Part shown: positions 29,582 to 41,989 of the stretch, in pieces | Layout: the number at the start of each line of letters is the position of its first letter | Numbering within the stretch: the stretch's first letter is position 1 | Sequence record: PX132564.1 | Reading direction: 5' to 3' (one strand) | DNA from: a phage | DNA: 47,573 nt | The notes under the pieces: generated by a model | Database searches by the model: none | What the model was told of the DNA's origin: nothing | The model's input: only the letters and a program-made list of their open reading frames with translations | Position numbers and translations under genes: made by a program

Positions 29582-29679
29582 CTTTCATTAATCCCTGAAC
29601 TGTTGGTTAATACGCTTGAGGGTGAATGCGAACAATAAAAAAGGAGCCTGTAGCTCCCTGATAATTTTGCTTTTCATGT

Positions 29680-30995: not shown

Positions 30996-31777
30996 GCTGC
31001 CACCTTCTGCTCAGTGGCTTTCTGTTTCAGGAATCCAAGAGCTTTCACTGCTTCGGCCTGTGTCAGTTCTGACGATGCGCGAATGTCGCGGCGAAATATC
31101 TGGGAACAGAGCGGCAATAAGTCGTCATCCCATGTTTTGTCCAGGGCAATCAGCAGAGTGTTAATCTCCTGCATGGTTTCATCGTTAACCGGAGTGATGT
31201 CGCGTTCCGGCTGACGTTCCGCAGTGTATGCAGTATTTTCGACAATGCGCTCGGCTTCATCCTTGTCATAGATACCAGCAAATCCGAAGGCCAGACGGGC
31301 ACACTGAATCATGGCTTTATGCCGTAACATCCGTTTGGGATGCGACTGCCACGGCCCCGTGATTTCTCTGCCTTCGCGAGTTTTGAATGGTTCGCGGCGG
31401 CATTCATCCATCCATTCGGTAACGCAGATCGGATGATTGCGGTCTTTGCGGTAAATCCGGCACGTACATGATTCATTGTCCTGCTCAAAGTCCATGCCAT
31501 CAAACTGCTGGTTTTCATTGATGATGCGGGACCAGCCATCAACGCCCACCACCGGAACGATGCCGTTCTGCTTATCAGGGAAGGCGTAAATTTCTTTCGT
31601 CCACGGATTAAGGCCGTACTGGTTGGCGACGATCAGCAATGCGATGAACTGCGCATCGCTGGCATCACCTTTAAATGCCGTCTGACGAAGAGTGGTGATC
31701 AGTTCCTGTGGGTCGACAGAATCCATGCCGACACGTTCAGCCAGCTTCCCAGCCAGCGTTGCGAGTGCTGTACTCAT
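30992..31777 (-). CDS. bet: recombinase Bet (Red-beta)
   Basis: 261 aa [48 protein letters not shown]..., lambda Bet. Confidence 0.96.
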
Positions 31778-31782
31778 CCGTT

Positions 31783-32079
31783 TTATACCTCTGAATCAAT
31801 ATCAACATGGTGGTGAGCAATGGTTTCAACCATGTACCGGATGTGTTCTGCCATGCGCTCCTGAAACTCAACATCGTCATCAAACGCACGGGTAATGGCT
31901 TTTTTGCTGGCCCCGCAGCGTTGCAAATGATCGATGCAGAGTGATTCAAACAGGTGCTGTGGAAGACCTTTTTCCATGTCGTCTGCCAGTTCTGCCTCTT
32001 TCTCTTCACGGGCGATCTGCTGGTAGTGACGCGCCCAGCTTTGAGCCTCAAGACGATCCTGAATGTAATAAGCGTTCAT
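31783..32079 (-). CDS. gam: Gam (RecBCD inhibitor), 98-aa form
   Basis: [46 protein letters not shown]..., lambda Gam; the track shows only the 98-aa form open. Confidence 0.9.
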
Positions 32080-32154
32080 GGCTGAACTCCTGAAAATGGC
32101 TGTGAAAATATCGCCTGCGAAATGCCGGGCTGATTAGGTAAACAGGAAAGGGGA

Positions 32155-32304
32155 TTAGTGATTCAGGCCGTTGCCGCGTCCGTCGAGAAAAACTTCCACG
32201 AGCAAATCACGGGTATAAGTGCGCTCGATGCCGCGATGCAGATAAAGCCGTCCGCGTAAATTAGCTGATGCAGTCCAGGTACCATCTTTGTGTTTGACCA
32301 GCAT
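32155..32304 (-). CDS. kil: Kil-like small protein (C-terminal part of track ORF 32155-32445)
   Basis: Stop is at the lambda kil position relative to gam; the upstream part of the 96-aa track ORF is not lambda-like, so the start is uncertain. Confidence 0.4.
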
Positions 32305-32651
32305 TCCTGGCATGACCGCACCGCGATTAACGGTCTGCGTTCCGTAATGTTGATGAACCATAAAAACTCCTGCCCGTAAGCTGGGCTGCTGAACATATAG
32401 AGACTTCTGCGCGTATTCAGGCGGTGGATGGCCGCCGGTTGTCATAACTAAGCCGCCTCGTTGAAGCGACTAAGGTATGAAATGTTGAGTTAATTTCAGC
32501 TGGTCACACCGACGTTCACGCGTCCGTTTCACCCCTCGCACTCCCCGAAGCCTGCTGAAATTCAAACTGCGGATCTAAGCGGTCATCGCAACGGTGAATC
32601 AGGTAGTTGCCGTATCGTTGTGTTGTTGCGATGAACTTATTTAAAACTATA

Positions 32652-32693
32652 GTTGTTTTATCGTCAACAACAAAAGTTGTTTTATTGGTTGTT
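32652..32693 (-). promoter_or_regulatory. OL-like operator cluster with leftward promoter
   Basis: GTTGTT / AACAAC hexamers at about 32652, 32666, 32676, 32688 forming GTTGTT-N8-AACAAC and AACAAC-N4-GTTGTT, the same half-site as the cI-cro operator; TTGACG -35-like on the minus strand. Confidence 0.45.
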
Positions 32694-32956
32694 TTAGATA
32701 TAACTGGTTGTATTTAGGATGGATTTATTTTGTGACTTGAATCGCATAGCGATAACTGAAGCGAGGTTATGGTGGTTTTTTTAACGGTGTGTGTGATGAG
32801 GGGAGGGCAAAAGAAAACCCGGCACGGTGACCGGGATTCTTACGCCGTTAGGTAAAGATATTATTGCGGTGGCTTAATATTACTACCTAGAGCAAAGATA
32901 GGAATTAGTTCTTTACTGAATGAGCACAATGCCCAGTTGATAATTTTTAATTGGTA

Positions 32957-33646
32957 CTACCCATGCTTCCTATATGTCTGCGGCATGCTCCCAATAACCT
33001 TACCGAAGATGAACACCCGGTTCATCTCGTCTTTCTCGATCGGGTCCCACGGTGAGTAGCTTTTGTTATCAGAGATGACCAGCAGCTTATCCTTCATCAT
33101 TTGCAGGCGCTTTACATGGGCTGTGTCGTCGTACAGAAACGCATAGATACCATCACCGTCGAAAGATTTAACTGTGATATCAACGAACAGCAGATCACCT
33201 GGTTCGATCGTTCCTGACATGCTGTCACCACGCACGTTAATGATGCGGATATTTTCCGCCTTCCTACCATCGAACATGTGACGAGCATCGTCAAACGAGT
33301 ACTCAACCGAGCGTAGAACTTCTACAAACTCACGGTTGATGACTCCCGGCCCAGCACTGACTTCTATATCAAGAACGTCAATCTTGAAGTATTTGGAATG
33401 GCTGACAGTTGATTGTATTGGTTGCACTGTACTGTCTGACATATTTCCAACGCCAGAAGATAACCATTCTGCGCGCACACCCAAAGCGTTCGCGATCTCC
33501 ACGATTTTAGTTGTTTGATTAGCTTTCCCTGTTTCGATTTTCTGAATAGCAGCCTGGCTAACCCCGACCAAATCCCCAAGCGCCTTTTGTGTAAGGCCTC
33601 GCGCTAATCTGGCTTCTTTAAGTCTTTCTGAGAGTGTTGTTTTCAT
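32957..33646 (-). CDS. cI: CI-type repressor (HTH_XRE N-terminus, LexA/S24 peptidase-like C-terminus)
   Basis: MKTTLSERLKEARLARGLTQKALGDLVGVSQAAIQKIETG... HTH, then C-terminal ...INVRGDSMSGTIEPGDLLFVD...VKRL... with Ser/Lys dyad motifs; divergent from cro; not lambda cI. Confidence 0.85.
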   Translation of the reverse strand: MKTTLSERLKEARLARGLTQKALGDLVGVSQAAIQKIETGKANQTTKIVEIANALGVRAEWLSSGVGNMSDSTVQPIQSTVSHSKYFKIDVLDIEVSAGPGVINREFVEVLRSVEYSFDDARHMFDGRKAENIRIINVRGDSMSGTIEPGDLLFVDITVKSFDGDGIYAFLYDDTAHVKRLQMMKDKLLVISDNKSYSPWDPIEKDEMNRVFIFGKVIGSMPQTYRKHG

Positions 33647-33690
33647 AGTCCAAATGTACAACCAAGGTTTTATTCCATCAAACGAAAATG

Positions 33691-33723
33691 GTTGTTGACT
33701 AAAAACAACCATAGTTTTAATCT
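33691..33723 (+). promoter_or_regulatory. OR-like operator palindrome overlapping a pR-like promoter
   Basis: ATGGTTGTT-GACTAAA-AACAACCAT palindrome; TTGACT (-35) inside it, 17-bp spacer, TAATCT (-10), then GGAGG RBS and cro ATG. Confidence 0.55.
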
Positions 33724-33750
33724 TGATTCAAATTAACCACGGAGGTTGTT

Positions 33751-33981
33751 ATGAACCCAGCTATCAAAACAGCGATCAATATCGTTGGTTCACAAAAGAA
33801 ACTGGGCGCTGCTTGCGAAGTTTCACAGCAGGCCGTCTATAAGTGGCTTCACAACAAAGCAAAGGTATCCCCTGAACATGTCGGCAGCATTGTTACGGCT
33901 ACTGGTGGAGTAGTGAAGGCATACCAGATTCGCCCGGATCTTCCGAAGTTGTTTCCACACACCGAAAAGAACGCAGCTTAA
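33751..33981 (+). CDS. cro: Cro-type repressor
   Basis: 76-aa HTH protein (…KKLGAACEVSQQAVYKW…) divergent from cI with strong RBS. Confidence 0.8.
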   Translation: MNPAIKTAINIVGSQKKLGAACEVSQQAVYKWLHNKAKVSPEHVGSIVTATGGVVKAYQIRPDLPKLFPHTEKNAA

Positions 33982-33993
33982 ATTTCCATTTCA

Positions 33994-34006
33994 CGCTCTT
34001 TAACAA
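33994..34006 (+). promoter_or_regulatory. boxA-like element (nutR position)
   Basis: CGCTCTTTAACAA just after cro, matching the rrn/lambda boxA consensus (T/C)GCTCTTTAACAA as I recall it; no obvious boxB hairpin follows. Confidence 0.4.
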
Positions 34007-34050
34007 TAAGCAATCAACTTAACAGTCAATTCAAACTAAAGGAGTCAATT

Positions 34051-34590
34051 ATGCAACCACTTACATACCAACAGACTAGCGGATTTAGCCCGACTGCGGT
34101 GATAAATCGTTCTCAAACAAAACAGGTGCCAGGCCACGAAAAAATCCGTGATGCCGTCCGCGCCTGGTCGGCTGTAGATAATCAGGATGTCGTTGCCACA
34201 CTCATTGTGAATGAGTATCTGGAGCAGGGCGGCGGCACCATCGATTTCCCTGATGATGTCAGCCGTGCACGCCAGAAGCTGTTCCGCTTCCTCGATAACA
34301 AATTCGATTCTGAAAAATACCGAAATAACGTGCGTGAACTGACCCCGGCAATTCTGGCGGTACTACCGCTGGAATATCGCGGTTACCTGGTTGAGCAGGA
34401 TAGCTTCATGGCTAGGTTGGCTGAAATGGAAAAGGAACTCAGTGAGGCAAAACAGGCTGTCATTCTCAACGCACCACGCCACCAGAAACTGAAGGAAATT
34501 AGTGAAGGTATTGTGTCGATGTTTCGTGTGGACCCAGATCTGGCTGGTCCATTGATGGCGATGGTTACTACCATGCTGGGGGCGATATGA
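34051..34590 (+). CDS. CII-like / YdaT-family regulatory protein (putative)
   Basis: 179-aa ORF in the cII position with AAGGAG RBS; not lambda CII; family assignment from recollection only. Confidence 0.45.
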   Translation: MQPLTYQQTSGFSPTAVINRSQTKQVPGHEKIRDAVRAWSAVDNQDVVATLIVNEYLEQGGGTIDFPDDVSRARQKLFRFLDNKFDSEKYRNNVRELTPAILAVLPLEYRGYLVEQDSFMARLAEMEKELSEAKQAVILNAPRHQKLKEISEGIVSMFRVDPDLAGPLMAMVTTMLGAI

Positions 34591-34676
34591 CAGGTTCAGA
34601 AATGGCGAAAGCCGGTCTGCTGGAACAGAACCGACTTTCAGGTGCAAATCGTAACACACTCATTGCGGGAGGAATT

Positions 34677-35606
34677 ATGGCAAACACTGCTGAGATATTC
34701 AATTTTCCAGTGCCGGATGCGGCACAAAAGGAGCCGCGCGTGGCAGATCTCGATGATGGTTATACGCGCATTGCAAATGAGTTGCTGGAAGCTGTGATGC
34801 TGGCCGGATTAACACAGCACCAGCTTCTGGTCTTTCTGGCTGTCATGCGCAAAACATATGGCTTTAATAAAAAACTGGATTGGGTTAGCAACGAGCAACT
34901 TTCCGAATTAACCGGGATATTGCCGCACAAGTGTTCTGCTGCAAAAAGTGTTCTGGTAAAGCGTGGGATTTTTATTCAGAGCGGGCGGAATACCGGCATT
35001 AATAATGTGGTCAGTGAATGGTCAACATTACCCGAATCAGGTAAGAAAAATAAAGTTTACCTGAAAGAGGTAAATTTACCTGAATCAGGTAAAAAAAGTT
35101 TACCCAAATCAGGTAAAGGCGTTTACCCGAATCAGGTAAACACAAAAGACAAACTAACAAAAGACAATATAAAACCTTTTTCGTCCGAGAATTCTGGCGA
35201 ATCCTCTGACCAACCAGAAAACGATCTTCCTGTGGTGAAACCGGATGCTGCAATTCAGAGCGGCAGCAAGTGGGGGACAGCAGAAGACCTGACCGCCGCA
35301 GAGTGGATGTTTGACATGGTGAAGACCATCGCGCCATCAGCCAGAAAACCGAATTTTGCAGGGTGGGCTAACGATATCCGCCTGATGCGTGAACGTGACG
35401 GACGTAACCACCGCGACATGTGCGTGCTGTTCCGCTGGGCATGCCAGGACAACTTCTGGTCCGGTAACGTGCTAAGTCCGGCCAAACTCCGCGACAAGTG
35501 GACCCAACTCGAAATCAACCGTAACAAGCAACAGGCAGGCGTGACAGCTAGCAAACCAAAACTCGACCTGACAAACACAGACTGGATTTACGGGGTGGAT
35601 CTATGA
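34677..35606 (+). CDS. O: replication initiator O
   Basis: MANTAEIFNFPVPDAAQKEPRVADLDDGYTRIANELLEA... is lambda O N-terminus-like; GGGAGG RBS before the ATG at 34677; ori iterons inside. Confidence 0.85.
   Translation: MANTAEIFNFPVPDAAQKEPRVADLDDGYTRIANELLEAVMLAGLTQHQLLVFLAVMRKTYGFNKKLDWVSNEQLSELTGILPHKCSAAKSVLVKRGIFIQSGRNTGINNVVSEWSTLPESGKKNKVYLKEVNLPESGKKSLPKSGKGVYPNQVNTKDKLTKDNIKPFSSENSGESSDQPENDLPVVKPDAAIQSGSKWGTAEDLTAAEWMFDMVKTIAPSARKPNFAGWANDIRLMRERDGRNHRDMCVLFRWACQDNFWSGNVLSPAKLRDKWTQLEINRNKQQAGVTASKPKLDLTNTDWIYGVDL
35031..35140 (+). repeat. replication origin iterons inside O (four 18-19 bp repeats TTTACC(C/T)(G/A)AATCAGGTAAA) followed by an A/T-rich segment
   Basis: Copies at about 35031, 35076, 35098, 35121, each an internal inverted repeat TTACC...GGTAA; A-rich stretch 35141-35180. 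Confidence 0.7.
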
Positions 35607-36553: not shown

Positions 36554-39500
36554 ATGACCACTGTGAATAAAAAGTTAAAAAAAACTGCATCTGGCGCGAT
36601 TACATGGTCGGTAATTGTTACCCAGATATTATCTCCAGTTTCTCTTTCTTTGATCCCAGCAAACAGTTTTGCATCATCTGGTAATAAAGATGTTACGCAA
36701 ATTTATGCCAGCGATGAGCATGCAAATAAAGTGGCCTCATTTGCAGCAAGTGCAGGTCAGAGCCTGGCGAATAATAATGCAAGTAGTTTTGCTGTAAATA
36801 CTTTATCAACTCAGGCGACAAAAGAGGTCGTCGACTGGTTGCAACAATATGGCAATGCGCGCATCAAGCTTAATGTCGATGATTCTTTTTCCTTGAAGGA
36901 TTCATCATTCGACTTTTTATATCCATGGCTGGATACTCAGGATTATGTGTTATTCAGTCAGACATCACTACATCGTACTGATGACCGAAATCAGACCAAT
37001 ATTGGTTTGGGGATTCGTCATTTCACTCCTGATAACGCAATGTTGGGTGCGAATGTTTTCTATGATTACGATTTAAGTCGTAGTCACTCTCGTGCAGGTT
37101 TTGGGGTTGAGTACTGGAGGGATTATTTCAGGCTTGGTGTAAATACCTATTTTGGTCTATCTGACTGGAAGAACAGTCGTGATATTGATGATTATCTGGA
37201 AAGACCTGCAAATGGCTGGGATTTTTCTGCTGAAGGATGGCTACCTGCTTATCCGCAATTAGGGGCATCTATTCAGTTTGAAAAATATTATGGTAAAAAT
37301 GTCGGGTTATTTGGAAGCGATAACCTGCAGGAAAACCCTTACGCAGTTACTGGGGGAATTTCTTATACACCAGTTCCTCTGATTAAGTTTTCTGCACAGC
37401 ATAAGCAAGGACAGAGCAACACTCACGATACAACCTTTGGTGTTGAGTTTAATTATCGCCCGGGCGTTTCCTTGGCTGAACAGCTTAGCAGCGATAATGT
37501 TGCAGTTATGCGAGAAGTCCAGAACCGGCGTTATGATTTTGTTGAACGAAATAACAACATTGTTCTGGAGTACAAGAAGAAGCATGCACTGAAAATCAGT
37601 TTGCCAGAGTCTGTTCAGGGGGAGGGGGAATCAATCATCCCTGTAACACTGACAATCAACAATGCTAGTGGTGGTATCAAGTCTGTACAGTGGAATGATA
37701 GTGCATTCACTGCGGCTGGCGGCAAGATCAGTGGAAATGGCACATCATGGCAGATCACTTTACCGGCTTATAAAAGCGAAGGTGTAAATTCGTGGAATGT
37801 TGGAGCCACAGTACAGGATAACAGAGGCAACGTTTCCAACTATGCCGTGATGAATATTAGCGTTACTGATAGTGGTGTCTCGACGGCTGATTCGTCTTTT
37901 ACACTGGATGGAGATTCGTCGCCGACAATCTCTGCTGATAGCCAATCCACTTATCCGATAGTATTAAGCCTGAAAGATAGTAACGGTAAGGCATTAACCG
38001 GACTGGCTGATGACATTGAAATGTCAGTGGAATTTACAGCAGATAGCAATAGTGCTCGACAGCGTGAAACGGTAACTGCTCCGTCATTAGGCGCGGTAGA
38101 GGAAATCTCTGCTGGGGTATATCGCTCTAAAAGCGAAGGTGTAAATTCGTGGAATGTTGGAGCCACAGTACAGGATAACAGAGGCAACGTTTCCAACTAT
38201 GCCGTGATGAATATTAGCGTTACTGATAGTGGTGTCTCGACGGCTGATTCGTCTTTTACACTGGATGGAGATTCGTCGCCGACAATCTCTGCTGATAGCC
38301 AATCCACTTATCCGATAGTATTAAGCCTGAAAGATAGTAACGGTAAGGCATTAACCGGACTGGCTGATGACATTGAAATGTCAGTGGAATTTACAGCAGA
38401 TAGCAATAGTGCTCGACAGCGTGAAACGGTAACTGCTCCGTCATTAGGCGCGGTAGAGGAAATCTCTGCTGGGGTATATCGCTCTGTTCTGGCTGCTGGT
38501 TCGCAGGCTGGTACGGTACGTGTAACTGCAAAAGTTCAGGGAAAAACATTTACTCTCAGTATTAAGCAAACAGCAACAACAGAACCTGATTCTGAGGTCA
38601 GTGCTGTTTTAACCGCTGCACCAGCAGAACAGGTAGTTGGTTACAATATCAATCTACAACTGGCAGTGAAGGATTCACAAGGAAATGCAATCACTGGTGA
38701 TAACACTCTGAGCTTTTATGCTCTTAACCAGGCAGAAGGAGTCGAGTTTGGGACTGTAACGGAAAAAGACGGTGTCTATAGCGCGACAGTAACTTCAAAA
38801 CGAGCTGGTAAGATTACTATCGGTGTTAAATCTGATAGTCATGATTTCTCAGGTGTTAAGAAAGAAATCACCTTTATTGAGGACCGGCAGCAGGTTACAT
38901 TCTCTCAGTTTGAAGCCAGCCAAAATAATGCATTGGCTGATGGAAAACAGAGAAATATGGTAACTGTAAGCCTTGCGGACCGTTTCGGCAATGTTGTTCC
39001 TGGTTATGCTGTCACATTGTCTTTACCAGCAGGGATAACTCAAGTTGGTGGTGAACATGCTGTTTCAACTGACGAAAATGGTAATGCTATTTTTGCGTTA
39101 ATAAGCTCCACTCCGGGGTCTTACGTGATTACAGCTCATGCTGGTTCTCAGATGTCTACTGAGTTAACAGTGACCTTTGCATCAAATATGACCGGAGCTT
39201 CACTGTCACTGACGCCTGAAAGCAGTAGTTTAATTTCCAATATTCCTGCTAATGGTAAGGATGCAGCGGTATTAGATGTGCAGCTGACAAATACGAATGC
39301 GTCGGTCAATGGGCAAAAGATTCAGCTCATCACCTCATCTGAAGGATTATCTGTACCAACAAATATCGTGACTGATTCAACAGGGCATGTTTCTGTTCCG
39401 CTTACAACGGTGAAAGCTGGTGAGTACACGGTGACTGCACGGGTGACTGACGGTTCCCATAGCGTGGAATCTGGCAGCGTTAAGTTAACTTTTGTGCCCG

Positions 39501-40462
39501 ATGTTGCTTCTGCAGAACTGAATATGAGTGTATCAAAACAGGAGATTGTGGCCGATGGCAGTGAAAACGCAACAGTAAACATTCAGTTGGTTGATGCGAA
39601 TAACAATGCGTTTACAGGCGAGGTGGATTTAACGATTACACCATCGACGGGAGCATCATTGACCAGTAGTAATCTGCAACTGGATGCTCATGGACAGGCA
39701 ACAACGCAGTTCACTGCATCGAAATCAGGCCAGTACACAATTCAGGCCGAGTATGTTCTGGATGGGAAACGCATAACCGCAAGCCAGAATATTGATGCCG
39801 TGACGGATGTGAAGGGGGCTGTGTTGGAGATCACATCATCTGCATCTTCGGCTGTAGTGAGCGATACCAACAATCTGGTATTTACGTTACTGTTGAAAAG
39901 TAAGTCAGGCGAAGCATTAAGTGGTCGAGCATTGAATGTTAAGACATCTGGGCCGTCTAAATATGGTGCGTTGGTGGTTGATAAAACCACAGTAACGACT
40001 GATGAGAACGGTCAGGCTACGGTAAGCGTACATGGTCGAACGGTTGGTTCGTATAAATTAACGGCGACCTTAAACGAACTTGGCAGTGATGTTAGCGCGG
40101 TGAAATCATTCTCCCTGTACGCTGATGACGCAAATGGAGTATTGACTCTAACAAAAGATCCTGGTTATGAGACAAACGATGGATCTCCAGTAGGTATTTA
40201 TGCTCGATTTGTCGATCATTTTGGAAACCCATTATCTGGTACGGTTGAGTTTTCTGCTGGTAGTGAAGATAGTCCAGACTCTCAACGGGTCAAAATGGAG
40301 CCTGCTACAGTAACGTTACACTGGACAGGTAATGCAGCTTCGGAATTCAGCACCTATGAAAGTGGTTATCACTGGATTAAGGCCAAAATAACGAATAGCA
40401 AAAATACATATGAGAAAACAATAAGGACTTATGTTGTAAAACTACCTGAAAAGGATAGTTAA
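36554..40462 (+). CDS. invasin/intimin-family inverse autotransporter adhesin with multiple Big (Ig-like) repeats
   Basis: 1302 aa; signal peptide, then a beta-barrel region (…LFSQTSLHRTDDRNQTNIGLGIRHF…NPYAVTGGISYTPVPL…DRNNNIVLEYKKK) resembling Yersinia invasin/intimin, then serial Ig-like repeats; AT-rich upstream. Confidence 0.85.
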   Translation: MTTVNKKLKKTASGAITWSVIVTQILSPVSLSLIPANSFASSGNKDVTQIYASDEHANKVASFAASAGQSLANNNASSFAVNTLSTQATKEVVDWLQQYGNARIKLNVDDSFSLKDSSFDFLYPWLDTQDYVLFSQTSLHRTDDRNQTNIGLGIRHFTPDNAMLGANVFYDYDLSRSHSRAGFGVEYWRDYFRLGVNTYFGLSDWKNSRDIDDYLERPANGWDFSAEGWLPAYPQLGASIQFEKYYGKNVGLFGSDNLQENPYAVTGGISYTPVPLIKFSAQHKQGQSNTHDTTFGVEFNYRPGVSLAEQLSSDNVAVMREVQNRRYDFVERNNNIVLEYKKKHALKISLPESVQGEGESIIPVTLTINNASGGIKSVQWNDSAFTAAGGKISGNGTSWQITLPAYKSEGVNSWNVGATVQDNRGNVSNYAVMNISVTDSGVSTADSSFTLDGDSSPTISADSQSTYPIVLSLKDSNGKALTGLADDIEMSVEFTADSNSARQRETVTAPSLGAVEEISAGVYRSKSEGVNSWNVGATVQDNRGNVSNYAVMNISVTDSGVSTADSSFTLDGDSSPTISADSQSTYPIVLSLKDSNGKALTGLADDIEMSVEFTADSNSARQRETVTAPSLGAVEEISAGVYRSVLAAGSQAGTVRVTAKVQGKTFTLSIKQTATTEPDSEVSAVLTAAPAEQVVGYNINLQLAVKDSQGNAITGDNTLSFYALNQAEGVEFGTVTEKDGVYSATVTSKRAGKITIGVKSDSHDFSGVKKEITFIEDRQQVTFSQFEASQNNALADGKQRNMVTVSLADRFGNVVPGYAVTLSLPAGITQVGGEHAVSTDENGNAIFALISSTPGSYVITAHAGSQMSTELTVTFASNMTGASLSLTPESSSLISNIPANGKDAAVLDVQLTNTNASVNGQKIQLITSSEGLSVPTNIVTDSTGHVSVPLTTVKAGEYTVTARVTDGSHSVESGSVKLTFVPDVASAELNMSVSKQEIVADGSENATVNIQLVDANNNAFTGEVDLTITPSTGASLTSSNLQLDAHGQATTQFTASKSGQYTIQAEYVLDGKRITASQNIDAVTDVKGAVLEITSSASSAVVSDTNNLVFTLLLKSKSGEALSGRALNVKTSGPSKYGALVVDKTTVTTDENGQATVSVHGRTVGSYKLTATLNELGSDVSAVKSFSLYADDANGVLTLTKDPGYETNDGSPVGIYARFVDHFGNPLSGTVEFSAGSEDSPDSQRVKMEPATVTLHWTGNAASEFSTYESGYHWIKAKITNSKNTYEKTIRTYVVKLPEKDS
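37772..38485 (+). repeat. perfect tandem duplication, 2 x 357 bp (119 codons), inside the adhesin gene
   Basis: Protein segment KSEGVNSWNVGATVQDNRGNVSNYAVMNISVTDSG...EEISAGVYRS occurs twice back to back; antisense track ORFs 37760-37945 and 38087-38302 are identical over their shared 60 residues. Confidence 0.9.
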
Positions 40463-40473
40463 CAAAATTGAAT

Positions 40474-40500
40474 GGGGAGGGCTTAGCCCTCCCTCTTTTT
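40474..40500. terminator. bidirectional rho-independent terminator between convergent adhesin and esterase genes
   Basis: GGGGAGGGC-tta-GCCCTCCC(T)C followed by TTTTT on plus and an A/T-rich run on minus. Confidence 0.7.
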
Positions 40501-41542
40501 ACAGGTTAGCGTTTGGGTTTTGTTGTTGGGGAGCTGTTTTTATAGGCGCTCCCAGGTTTTTAGTAAACCACTCAACGACTCTGTTTATAATAATTGGCTG
40601 ATACCATGTCTTATCGCCATGCTCGGCCCCTTCTACCAGCACGTACTCAGCGTTATCACCGTTCTTCTTCAACATCCTGAATAGTTTGGCGCTTTGCTCA
40701 GGTGAAACCAGAGTGTCTTTGCTACCATGCATAATAAGAAATGGGGGTTTTACTCCTTTCATATGTCCGATTGGACTGGCGTTTAGCGCTTTTTCTTTTG
40801 ACGCTGTGATGGGGGCTCCCGCAAAATTTCTGAATGCAGGGCCATTGATCATTAAGGCTTCGGTTACGGCAGGAGAGCGATGAACCTCCTGCACTGATTC
40901 AGGGAACCCCTCGCCAATATTCAACAAGTCAGAAATCCCATAAAGTGTGGCAACTGCCTGAACATCTGAGGATTGCTGAAGAAAGTCACCTTTATCAAAG
41001 GTTTTGTCACCATTTGTAGTTCCCATCATCTGGGCAAGCCATCCACCGGCAGAGTCACCCAGAACTCCGATTCTTTGAGGATCAATCCCATAATTGCTGG
41101 CATGCTCTCTCAGGTAACGTATTGCAGCTTTTCCATCCTCAACTGGTGCTGGAAATGTATCAGGAATTGTTCTGTATTCTACAGCGGCCACAACAAAACC
41201 AGCTTCTGCCAGAGCCATTCTCATTTCAATAAATTTGTCATGTTCAGAAGACATGAATCCGCCGCCGGGATAATAAATAATGGCTGGTTTTAAATCATTT
41301 GTTCGCGGGACAAGAACTGACATGTGAAGCTGTCTGACAGAACGAGTTCCTTTTATCTGGGAATAAACAACATCACCAATGAGATCGACCTGGTTTCTGG
41401 TCGGTGAAACACTAATGATATCTGCACCCGGGGTGTAACCAGGAAGATTAGTCTGGACAGGTGTTGCACAACTCCCGACCGACATGGCCATTGACATACC
41501 ATACAATAGTGTTGCAGATGATAATATCTTGTTAATTTTCAT
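40499..41542 (-). CDS. alpha/beta-hydrolase esterase/lipase, probable lipoprotein
   Basis: 347 aa; lipoprotein-type signal ending in Cys; oxyanion-hole PGGGF, nucleophile elbow GDSAGG, C-terminal HG. Confidence 0.8.
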   Translation of the reverse strand: MKINKILSSATLLYGMSMAMSVGSCATPVQTNLPGYTPGADIISVSPTRNQVDLIGDVVYSQIKGTRSVRQLHMSVLVPRTNDLKPAIIYYPGGGFMSSEHDKFIEMRMALAEAGFVVAAVEYRTIPDTFPAPVEDGKAAIRYLREHASNYGIDPQRIGVLGDSAGGWLAQMMGTTNGDKTFDKGDFLQQSSDVQAVATLYGISDLLNIGEGFPESVQEVHRSPAVTEALMINGPAFRNFAGAPITASKEKALNASPIGHMKGVKPPFLIMHGSKDTLVSPEQSAKLFRMLKKNGDNAEYVLVEGAEHGDKTWYQPIIINRVVEWFTKNLGAPIKTAPQQQNPNANL

Positions 41543-41989
41543 GTTTTACATGCCTTGACTTATCGGATGAAATTCTCTTACTAAATTTAACGGCAGTTTA
41601 ATAGCCGTACAACTCGTGGTAGCCAGGGAAATATCCCAGTCGTGGTTAAGGTTGTACTTGACGGCTATTATTTCAACAATGCTTAAAGTGAGAGCTTAAG
41701 GTTATGCGTATGTTTTACAGTCCGAGTAGATTCTGACCAATAGCTTCTTTGTATAATTCTGTCAGAAATAAATCTTGGCTTGCATGAAGTTTGAGACCTT
41801 ATCTTGTTTGATTATGAATAATCAATTCGCCATAATTGTATCACCGGAGCCTGAACAACTCCGGTGACTTCTGCGCTAAACGGGGACGTTTATGCGCACA
41901 CACAATCCAAACTCTCTTCTCCCTTCACAGATGCAGAAATGCACCTGCGTTTTTTTGCATCTAGCGTCTGACCTCTGTGGAGGTGAAGC

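Follow-up and report, generated by a model that had tools for sequence, protein, structure and literature searches.

The immunity region at positions 32446-34010 of the phage sequence PX132564.1 (47,573 nt, analysed as a whole and referred to below as the window) combines a boxA of the ribosomal RNA operon (rrn) type just downstream of cro with the lack of a recognizable N antiterminator and with a conserved leader between the leftward promoter pL and the cell-division inhibitor gene kil. Early transcription in this phage is probably controlled through host factors. The reading that we favour, at a probability of about one in two, is a switch of known type that relies on host Nus factors at boxA and has a leader of a regulatory kind on its leftward transcript. 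Because boxA is an exact consensus match, is predicted to be single-stranded, has no boxB and is invariant in 52 of 52 comparable copies, it may plausibly act on rightward transcription through Nus factors and without N.

Textbook accounts of early gene expression in lambdoid phages invoke the N protein and its nut sites, the put RNA of HK022 being the one studied exception. Judged by its sequence, the region serves immunity and early control in a lambdoid phage of the Rac/CP-933P/phi80 type and is practically that of Escherichia phage PhiR34_1. The phage, its switch type and the existence of N-less lambdoid phages are already known: HK022 and HK639 lack N as the window does, and LLS is a further case (PMC12315714). 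In the literature we found no description of a lambdoid early region that lacks both N and put, has an exact rrn boxA without boxB and carries a conserved leader at the N position.

An rrn-type boxA downstream of cro in a region lacking N

According to the list of open reading frames (ORFs), none of N size lies between pL and kil, and PHROG and Pfam scans of the ORFs of the early left and right operons returned no N or antitermination family, Q being the sole antiterminator found. Together with tblastn searches, these results bear out an earlier note on this DNA, made from the sequence alone, which had seen no N-like ORF in the immunity region. A conventional N homologue with nut boxB sites was sought in the window and not found, and the same holds for the N analogue encoded elsewhere that the note had offered as one way out; among the ORFs listed for the int-xis and nin regions, none is arginine-rich at the N-terminus. 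A vestigial N in an arginine-rich frame of the leader was considered and rejected, as tblastn gave only the same phage family and kil-proximal sequence. No leader hairpin is of the boxB type (5-bp stem with a GNRA-like pentaloop) on inspection of the folds. Of a lambda-type N/nut system the window has a boxA shortly after cro, at the place of nutR, and lacks N as first gene after pL, a nutL composed of boxA and boxB, and a boxB downstream of the nutR-like boxA. In phi80, the sequence shared with the window begins right after the gene annotated as 'N' and its terminator, so the window has a different cassette at the place of the phi80 nutL-N; the phi80 'N' itself has neither an arginine-rich motif nor a Pfam match.

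The boxA that had been called near-consensus proved to be exact. The segment GCTCTTTAACA (33995-34005) fits GYTCTTTAANA, the gamma-proteobacterial consensus given in PMC5725501, and so belongs to the sequence class of the boxA elements of rrn operons, suhB and clustered regularly interspaced short palindromic repeat (CRISPR) arrays. The 12-mer GCTCTTTAACAA (33995-34006) has no other match in the window even at two mismatches, while by our own arithmetic approximately 1e-4 boxA matches are expected in the 69-nt spacer between cro and the cII-like gene of the ydaT type. The element is untranslated (cro stop codon at 33979-33981, next ATG at 34051) and has its end about 30 nt upstream of the AAGGAG Shine-Dalgarno sequence and 45 nt upstream of the ATG of the ydaT-like gene. 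It is also predicted to be single-stranded: the fold of 33975-34055 has a minimum free energy of -4.1 kcal/mol (z = +0.5), an unpaired centroid and no hairpin, in agreement with the earlier remark that no obvious boxB follows. With only 7% G and no predicted structure, the spacer RNA is rut-like.

All 52 copies of this immunity type with an extractable junction have an identical boxA (52/52). The cro-cII junction with boxA occurs in 1515 of 5426 Escherichia coli genomes and is at least 99% identical in 1464 of these 1515, so the invariance is partly due to recent common descent. In locus L143, a more diverged copy whose junction is 87% identical, the spacer contains a 12-nt insertion along with four substitutions, and the sole change in boxA is C to T at the degenerate Y, giving GTTCTTTAACA (or, as otherwise written, GTTCTTTAACAA), the suhB allele. 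Unlike the window, HK639 and the examined stretch of HK022 lack a consensus boxA, which was likewise absent from the examined stretches of phi80 and HK225 and from the loci of other genera. Phages whose operators are built from AATAGC repeats carry a hairpin, GCCGC-CUAA(A/U)CU-GCGGC, across the cro stop codon instead of boxA. In phages of this immunity type, Perceval and PhiR70_1 among them, this 5-bp GC hairpin (L005, 6925-6960; L004, 6905-6945) with its 7-nt loop is preceded by UUGUUUAAC; the two together look like a boxA/boxB pair, yet there is no N in these phages.

The location of boxA directly after cro recalls lambda nutR, and the G-poor, rut-like RNA around it resembles that at tR1 and suhB. 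The window differs from lambda in lacking boxB and N and in having the high-affinity rrn form of boxA rather than the weaker lambda form, for which NusB:NusE affinities of 5-8 nM (rrnG boxA) and 80-90 nM (lambda nut boxA) have been measured (PMC2800207). With host Nus factors and without any phage protein, boxA blocks Rho termination at CRISPR arrays (PMC7665894). In contrast to rrn operons and CRISPR arrays, the RNA downstream of boxA is mostly translated here.

The short distance to the ydaT-like gene also fits a role for boxA as a translational operator, at which Nus factors would loop the RNA to RNA polymerase and block the Shine-Dalgarno sequence of this YdaT-type cII gene, an explanation that we consider possible, if on the unlikely side. 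It has precedents at E. coli suhB and at lambda N/nutL, acting on N itself. As described in PMC5725501, the suhB boxA represses translation and promotes Rho termination even when placed 100 nt from the Shine-Dalgarno sequence, and Baniulyte et al. called candidate targets at boxA-to-Shine-Dalgarno distances of 50 nt or less; a boxA about 30 nt before AAGGAG lies within the repression distances of up to 100 nt given there. In the Supplementary Data of the same paper, GCTCTTTAACA already appears for E. coli S88 and 55989, ahead of genes named 'cII' and 'C1', entries that probably represent the present locus; the passages of its main text that were consulted name suhB, prsA, rpsJ and ParE-like toxins and do not mention the cII/C1 entries. 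Reduced YdaT synthesis would permit Rho termination in the rut-like, 7% G spacer and so tune the Cro/CII ratio and the choice between lysis and lysogeny, and YdaT/CII overproduction is toxic and tightly regulated (PMC5917428). If boxA did no more than tune YdaT translation, it would still be a new input to the lysis-lysogeny decision. On the other side, nutR, whose boxA serves antitermination, classically lies directly after cro, as boxA does here, and relatives of the AATAGC type keep a ydaT-like gene without boxA. The two roles are, moreover, compatible and not mutually exclusive.

A conserved leader between pL and kil

The earlier note had described about 500 bp without an N-sized ORF between the leftward promoter and kil. 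The lack of such an ORF stands, but the length does not: from the predicted pL start there are about 190 nt to 32445 and about 270 nt to 32361, and the remaining ~300 bp (32700-32957) lie upstream of pL and contain the cI terminator. The match of kil to phrog_294 (E = 1e-38) covers residues 20-96 of a 96-amino-acid ORF; homologues in 12 loci of other genera begin M(V/I)HQHYGTQ, and the RefSeq and HK225 kil genes are 207 nt long. These starts and annotations, together with an AGGAG Shine-Dalgarno sequence, make a kil start at 32361 more likely than one at 32445. The segment in between (32362-32445) contains the hairpin GGCGG-CCAUCCA-CCGCC, is common to phi80 and has a 2-nt deletion in two relatives.

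The leader was found in 2222 of 5426 complete E. coli genomes (41%), nearly all at 90% identity or more, and in 16 phage records. A set of 119 copies from IMG/VR and GenBank, all at least 90% identical, comprises two operator types with one and the same leader. In alignments with Perceval and PhiR70_1, where the oL segment is swapped for AATAGC-type repeats, both flanks of the swapped operators are conserved and conservation resumes at about +1. Nucleotide diversity (pi) is 0.033 over the leader and 0.017 in its 3' part; in kil, gam and bet it is 0.055-0.083 at third and 0.011-0.035 at first and second codon positions. With a rate about half that of neighbouring third codon positions, the leader is under a constraint similar to that on coding positions and, on this sequence comparison, under purifying selection.

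Two folded domains are predicted (Table 1). In the 5'-terminal hairpin, polymorphisms at two stem pairs preserve pairing (alifold), and in a natural variant only its CAUCG/CGAUG stem is retained around a different loop; leaders of phi80, HK639 and prophages of other genera likewise begin with CAUCG and a hairpin. In domain 2, an A-to-G polymorphism in the closing stem leaves a G-U pair. Across the 119 copies, all seven common polymorphisms at predicted paired positions (7/7) preserve pairing, through G-U. The loop of the 5'-terminal leader hairpin, CTACCTGATTCA (32596-32607), matches half of the ori iteron TTACCTGAATCAGGTAA, which occurs as four repeats within gene O (35034-35138); this 10-11-nt match is probably due to chance.

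The earlier note had proposed that antitermination might be HK022 put-like. We therefore built a covariance model from HK022 putL, HK022 putR and HK639 putL, which recovers its own training sequences at 68-94 bits. With default filters it gave no match in the window at E <= 10, and with filters off its best hit in 31500-35000 reached 7.5 bits and lay in gene O, none falling in the leader. Rfam, applied to the whole window at gathering thresholds and to 32100-34200 in E-value mode, gave nothing credible, and neither the right operon nor the rest of the window has a second stretch that matches the leader over more than 11 nt. HK639 is annotated with putL only, so paired copies at pL and pR may not be universal for put. 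The two-stem RNA of about 70 nt with the conserved put sequence GAACGGC..GUCGG..GGCG.GG..AGGA.GA..CAAU and the copies after both promoters that characterize HK022 were thus not found, and with model, Rfam and second-copy searches all negative the leader does not qualify as a member of the put family. The window resembles HK022 and HK639 in being lambdoid without N (the two phages have their put element in the leader just downstream of pL), and HK639 also in having a YdaT-like CII and Kil; it differs from both in lacking a put-model match, a two-stem 70-nt unit and a pR counterpart. A permuted put was examined as well and rejected: GAUACGGCAAC in hairpin 1 resembles put stem II, and its loop is replaced in the natural variant.

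A new cis-acting antiterminator RNA, analogous to put and unrelated or only remotely related to it, might nevertheless occupy the cassette at about 32480-32633 and modify RNA polymerase so that transcription from pL reaches xis and int, a proposal to which we give little credence. The leader stands at the place of the phi80 nutL-N, and HK639 has its putL early in its own pL leader: the first ~45 nt of the HK639 leader are common to phi80 and are followed by the annotated putL, the two phages diverging there into their own cassettes. Conservation of the leader across immunity types, under purifying selection, also speaks for such an element. Finally, GAAACGGACGCGUGAACGUCGG (32509-32530) resembles put stem I (GAACGGCGCG...GCGUCGG) and is the sole match in the window to a relaxed descriptor, for which 0.78 matches were expected; this descriptor was written after the leader had been seen, and the biased match carries little weight for that reason. 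Besides the negative put model, the proposal is opposed by the absence of the stem II motifs from the leader (the only ACGGCAA-like motif lies in the hairpin loop that the natural variant replaces), by the lack of a copy in the right operon and of covariation, and by an ordinary folding energy. For its activity, put RNA of the HK022 type itself requires the zinc-binding domain of beta' in RNA polymerase (PMC9378689).

A check for ORFs below 60 amino acids in the leftward leader, suggested earlier, yielded a 20-amino-acid, arginine-rich candidate at 32470-32532. Its start codon is ATG instead of GTG in 9 of 74 unique leaders, and the peptide begins MKRT in 13 of 84 longer sequences. The stop codon is TAG in 27 and replaced by CAG in 47 of the 74 unique leaders; with CAG the frame runs on into the kil ORF, which accounts for 'Kil' annotations of 129-140 amino acids. 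Among the 84 longer sequences, 37 encode the 20-amino-acid peptide and 39 a 125-amino-acid fusion to kil, the tail being altered by insertions or deletions in the rest. PHROG and Pfam scans and tblastn gave no family match and no similarity to N.

It is very improbable that this frame encodes a minimal N-like or Nun-like RNA-binding micro-protein, MKRTRERRCDQLK..., although several features could be read in that way. The arginine-rich motif resembles those of N proteins (in lambda N, MDAQTRRRERRAEKQ), the frame is located at the N position, GGAG precedes the GTG by 8 nt and the start varies between GTG and ATG. The KRTRERRCDQLK core is unaltered in 80 of 83 recovered peptides, and third codon positions are two to three times more diverse than the others; this codon-position signal rests on three sites, with p estimated at ~0.4. 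Twenty amino acids leave no room for the regions by which N binds NusA and polymerase, the C-terminal part is unconserved (TAG versus CAG, a 5-nt insertion, frameshifts), and no boxB-like target lies after cro. A CG-rich structured RNA yields arginine codons by chance, as put RNA does.

More broadly, we regard it as doubtful that the leader (~150-270 nt), as RNA or through the 20-amino-acid peptide, is an unrecognized early-antitermination or anti-Rho device acting alongside an rrn-type boxA without any phage protein. If it were, the device would take the place of nutL-N in phi80 and of putL in HK639 in a prophage family carried by about 40% of sequenced E. coli.

Prophages of other genera with Kil (Silvania, Leclercia, Kluyvera, Citrobacter, Enterobacter, Raoultella and Entomohabitans) mostly have no N-sized ORF before kil either. 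In 9 of 12 of them the leader shares the motif ACGUUCCGC(C/U)(A/G)GCC(U)GGCGA(C/U)AAGG(G)CA, with a small hairpin that shows compensatory variation, about 60-100 nt upstream of kil (L009-L020; e.g. L009 and L012, 2440-2500). This motif is absent from the window and has no Rfam match. HK225 contains an Rfam match (38.2 bits) to isrB, an Hfq-binding small RNA, downstream of kil (L142, 3413-3510, minus strand), which is not present in the window.

Proposed control of early transcription

In the scheme that we favour, CI and the YdaS-type Cro would compete for 16-19 bp operators over pL, pR and a leaderless pRM, with YdaT acting as CII. On the rightward RNA, boxA would recruit NusB/NusE to RNA polymerase, followed by SuhB, NusA and NusG, and the resulting complex would shield the transcript from Rho independently of N, both within the G-poor cro-ydaT spacer and further along where translation is poor, on the model of rrn operons and CRISPR arrays. 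The leftward transcript, starting at about 32632, would open with a 5' hairpin, and some 270 nt of leader would run directly up to kil; this leader may serve as a regulatory 5' untranslated region (UTR) that affects stability, Rho access or kil translation, and the hairpin may stabilize the RNA. Intrinsic terminator-like sites in sense orientation are few, with only 29659-29641 leftward and only the terminator of an inserted moron and a weak site at 41929-41952 rightward, and a stronger device may for this reason not be needed. The leftward terminator (29641-29659, minus strand; AGGAGCC..GGCUCCUU followed by UUUUAUUGUU) lies between the orf61-like and TraR/DksA-like genes, before xis and int, and would be the main candidate target of any leftward antitermination.

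Several observations weigh against this scheme. Complexes of the boxA type counter Rho-dependent termination and act poorly on intrinsic terminators, and a strong intrinsic terminator (40474-40494) plus about 1 kb of antisense esterase sequence stand between pR and Q. None of 50 copies of the AATAGC immunity type has boxA (0/50), though they share the downstream genes, so boxA is not indispensable for this genome architecture. The pL leader contains no boxA at up to two mismatches. The leader was absent upstream of kil in 14 loci of other genera, and when the leftward leader was folded, as had been suggested, its stability did not exceed that of shuffled versions (z = -1.55 over the full length, ~0 per domain). 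The 119 copies show no double-sided covariation, only one-sided changes, and on our reading of the folds a majority polymorphism disrupts one of the inner hairpins of domain 2. The suhB-like translational role discussed above is an equally mechanistic alternative.

The scarcity of sense-orientation intrinsic terminator-like sites also leaves room for another account, in which boxA is a relic of an ancestral nutR that has lost boxB and N, the early operons, naturally poor in terminators like a lambda nin deletion, need no processive antitermination, and the leader is a plain 5' UTR. Q and int/xis could then be reached by leaky read-through or from internal promoters. The nin region is short (ninB to Q, 1.4 kb). 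Sister phages without boxA share the downstream genes, and the near-identity of the junction (at least 99% in 1464/1515 genomes) means that descent explains part of the invariance of boxA. Three findings make this account rather unlikely: boxA is a perfect, high-affinity rrn consensus and not a weakened lambda nut form; the diverged L143 copy alters boxA only inside the consensus; and the leader evolves more slowly than the third codon positions of its neighbours.

Should boxA work alone, Nus-based control of this kind would borrow the host ribosomal antitermination complex without a phage adaptor, a third solution beside N and put, and would provide a natural test bed for boxA-only control of translated operons. 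Of the complete E. coli genomes, 28-41% harbour the immunity and leader module in prophages, ST131, O104:H4 and O157:H7 strains among them, and boxA or the leader could influence how prophages of pathogenic strains are induced and excised and how their morons are expressed. The leader fronts a cell-division inhibitor and recombination genes and is under selection, without an annotated feature in the records examined.

The CI/YdaS/YdaT switch, its operators and the genome layout

The gene of a repressor with helix-turn-helix (HTH) and S24 peptidase domains and a Cro-like gene point away from each other, a CII-like gene comes next after the latter (Table 1), and repeated putative operators cover pR/pRM, with a second set at pL, as expected of a lambdoid CI/Cro(YdaS)/CII(YdaT) switch. 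That repressor and cro are divergent had been noted correctly; 'unlike lambda' is true at the family level only, as the switch is of the known CI/YdaS/YdaT type. YdaS and YdaT are functional Cro and CII proteins in Rac-, CP-933P- and phi80-type switches (PMC5917428; PMC8630535; PMC9986795). The cI ORF is open up to 33712, and the homologous start is the ATG at 33646; its mRNA is probably leaderless, judging from the spacing of the candidate pRM, as is that of paaR2 in CP-933P (PMC8630535).

In Rac (RacR-YdaS-YdaT) and CP-933P (PaaR2-YdaS-YdaT), too, the genes of the repressor and a YdaS-type Cro diverge and that of a YdaT-type CII comes after cro, and the Rac/CP-933P/phi80 group further resembles the window in having kil downstream of pL, several operators at pR/pRM and pL, and a leaderless repressor mRNA. 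Compared with Rac and CP-933P, the window has a classical autocleaving S24 CI and no toxin-antitoxin genes, and its operators are AAACAAC..GTTTT as opposed to the GTTTAGTAA repeats of CP-933P. The CP-933P paper mentions neither antitermination nor nut or boxA (PMC8630535).

The reuse of GTTGTT/AACAAC hexamers in both operator regions, reported earlier, is evident from their clustering: five copies fall in 32622-32693 and three in 33691-33750, and the density in the whole window (44 copies on both strands, 29 +/- 5 in shuffles) corresponds to about 0.07 copies per 72 bp. The palindrome of 25 bp noted over the TTGACT -35 is also present, at 33688-33712 (ATGGTTGTT-GACTAAA-AACAACCAT), with perfect 9-bp arms. 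The true repeat unit is an operator of 16-19 bp, AAACAAC-N-ATAGTTTT (variable base T/C), accompanied by weaker variants. Its sole zero-mismatch matches in the window, AAACAACTATAGTTTT (32643-32658, minus strand) and AAACAACCATAGTTTT (33703-33718, plus strand), stand in identical register relative to TTGAC(G/T), and the 19-nt arms of pL and pR are 95% complementary, so pL and pR represent two copies of one promoter-operator unit. A plus-strand promoter-like site (TTGCGA, 16 nt, TATAGT; 32626-32653) overlaps pL/oL1 and is directed at the end of cI; it is the sole consensus promoter match in 31700-34700 and may just reflect the palindromic operator.

Table 1. Features of the immunity and early-control region (positions in the window).
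Feature	Position	Strand	Description
kil (KilR/phi80-type FtsZ inhibitor)	32155-32361	-	likely true coding sequence of 68 amino acids; AGGAG Shine-Dalgarno
kil ORF, in-frame upstream extension	32362-32445	-	MTTGGHPPP...; from the ORF list
pL leader RNA	32362-32633	-	~270 nt; no feature annotated in the 40 E. coli records listed
Possible mini-ORF	32470-32532	-	GTG-MKRTRERRCDQLKLTQHFIP-TAG; arginine-rich; GGAG 8 nt upstream of GTG
Leader domain 2	32492-32562	-	12-bp closing stem AAUUUCAGCAGG / CCAGCUGAAAUU around G-rich hairpins; minimum free energy fold
Leader 5'-terminal hairpin	32584-32633	-	CAUCGCAAC ... GUUGCGAUG; fold and alifold
pL start site (predicted)	about 32631-32633	-	conservation across immunity types resumes at ~+1
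pL promoter (predicted from sequence)	32639-32667	-	-35 TTGACG 32662-32667, 17-nt spacer, -10 TTAAAT 32639-32644
oL	32643-32714	-	three or four operators at 24-bp spacing: 32643-32658, 32667-32682, weaker ones beyond
cI intrinsic terminator	32818-32835	-	CCCGGTCACCGTGCCGGG then TTTTCTTTTG; kept in relatives
cI repressor	32957-33646	-	229 amino acids; HTH_3 PF01381 and Peptidase_S24 PF00717; PHROG 4
Candidate pRM and leaderless cI mRNA	end 6 nt before cI ATG	-	TTGATG-17 nt-TACATT; from sequence
oR with pR and pRM	33655-33750	.	palindrome 33688-33712, pR -35 33695-33700, perfect operator 33703-33718
cro, YdaS family	33751-33981	+	divergent from cI; PF15943, E = 4e-17; phrog_35
boxA	33994-34006	+	CGCTCTTTAACAA (also written CGCUCUUUAACAA); untranslated, 12 nt past the cro stop
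cII-like regulator, YdaT family	34051-34590	+	PF06254, E = 9e-30; phrog_163

The ORFs run from terminase on the left to the lysis genes on the right of the 47,573-nt window, and this order, together with family matches to exo, bet, gam, kil, cI, cro, the cII-like gene, O, P, ninB, rusA and Q, identifies a complete lambda-like phage genome. Over 32100-34100 it is 99.7% identical in nucleotide sequence to PhiR34_1 (PV340559) and 96-99.5% identical to Turner (PP925837), PhiR47_2 (PV340567), IdasGreatGrand (PP925829) and PhiR26_1 (PV340555), all of which likewise have cI, cro, the cII-like gene, the leader and boxA. Their records annotate cI, Cro and cII, place the kil start at differing positions and pass over the leader, boxA and the missing N.

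Some of these relatives, e.g. PhiR47_2 (GevT/GevA), have additional genes between cI and pL, a slot that is a hotspot for accessory and defence genes and is empty in the window. Accessory cargo was seen there in PhiR47_2 (L002, 2743-4171) and E. coli strain 350 (L144, 1049-2650), and examples include the GevT/GevA toxin-antitoxin pair, a SIR2-family protein, a BamE-like lipoprotein (L143) and transmembrane proteins (Perceval). Unlike PhiR34_1-type relatives, the window has between P and ninB a moron with an invasin-like and an esterase gene (36554-41542), on the path from pR to Q and with AT-rich flanks. Its first gene encodes an inverse autotransporter/invasin-like protein of 1302 amino acids (IAT_beta and Big_1 repeats) with an exact internal duplication of about 120 amino acids, and is followed by the strong terminator at 40474-40494, which is bidirectional, and by the convergent esterase gene (40499-41542, minus strand).

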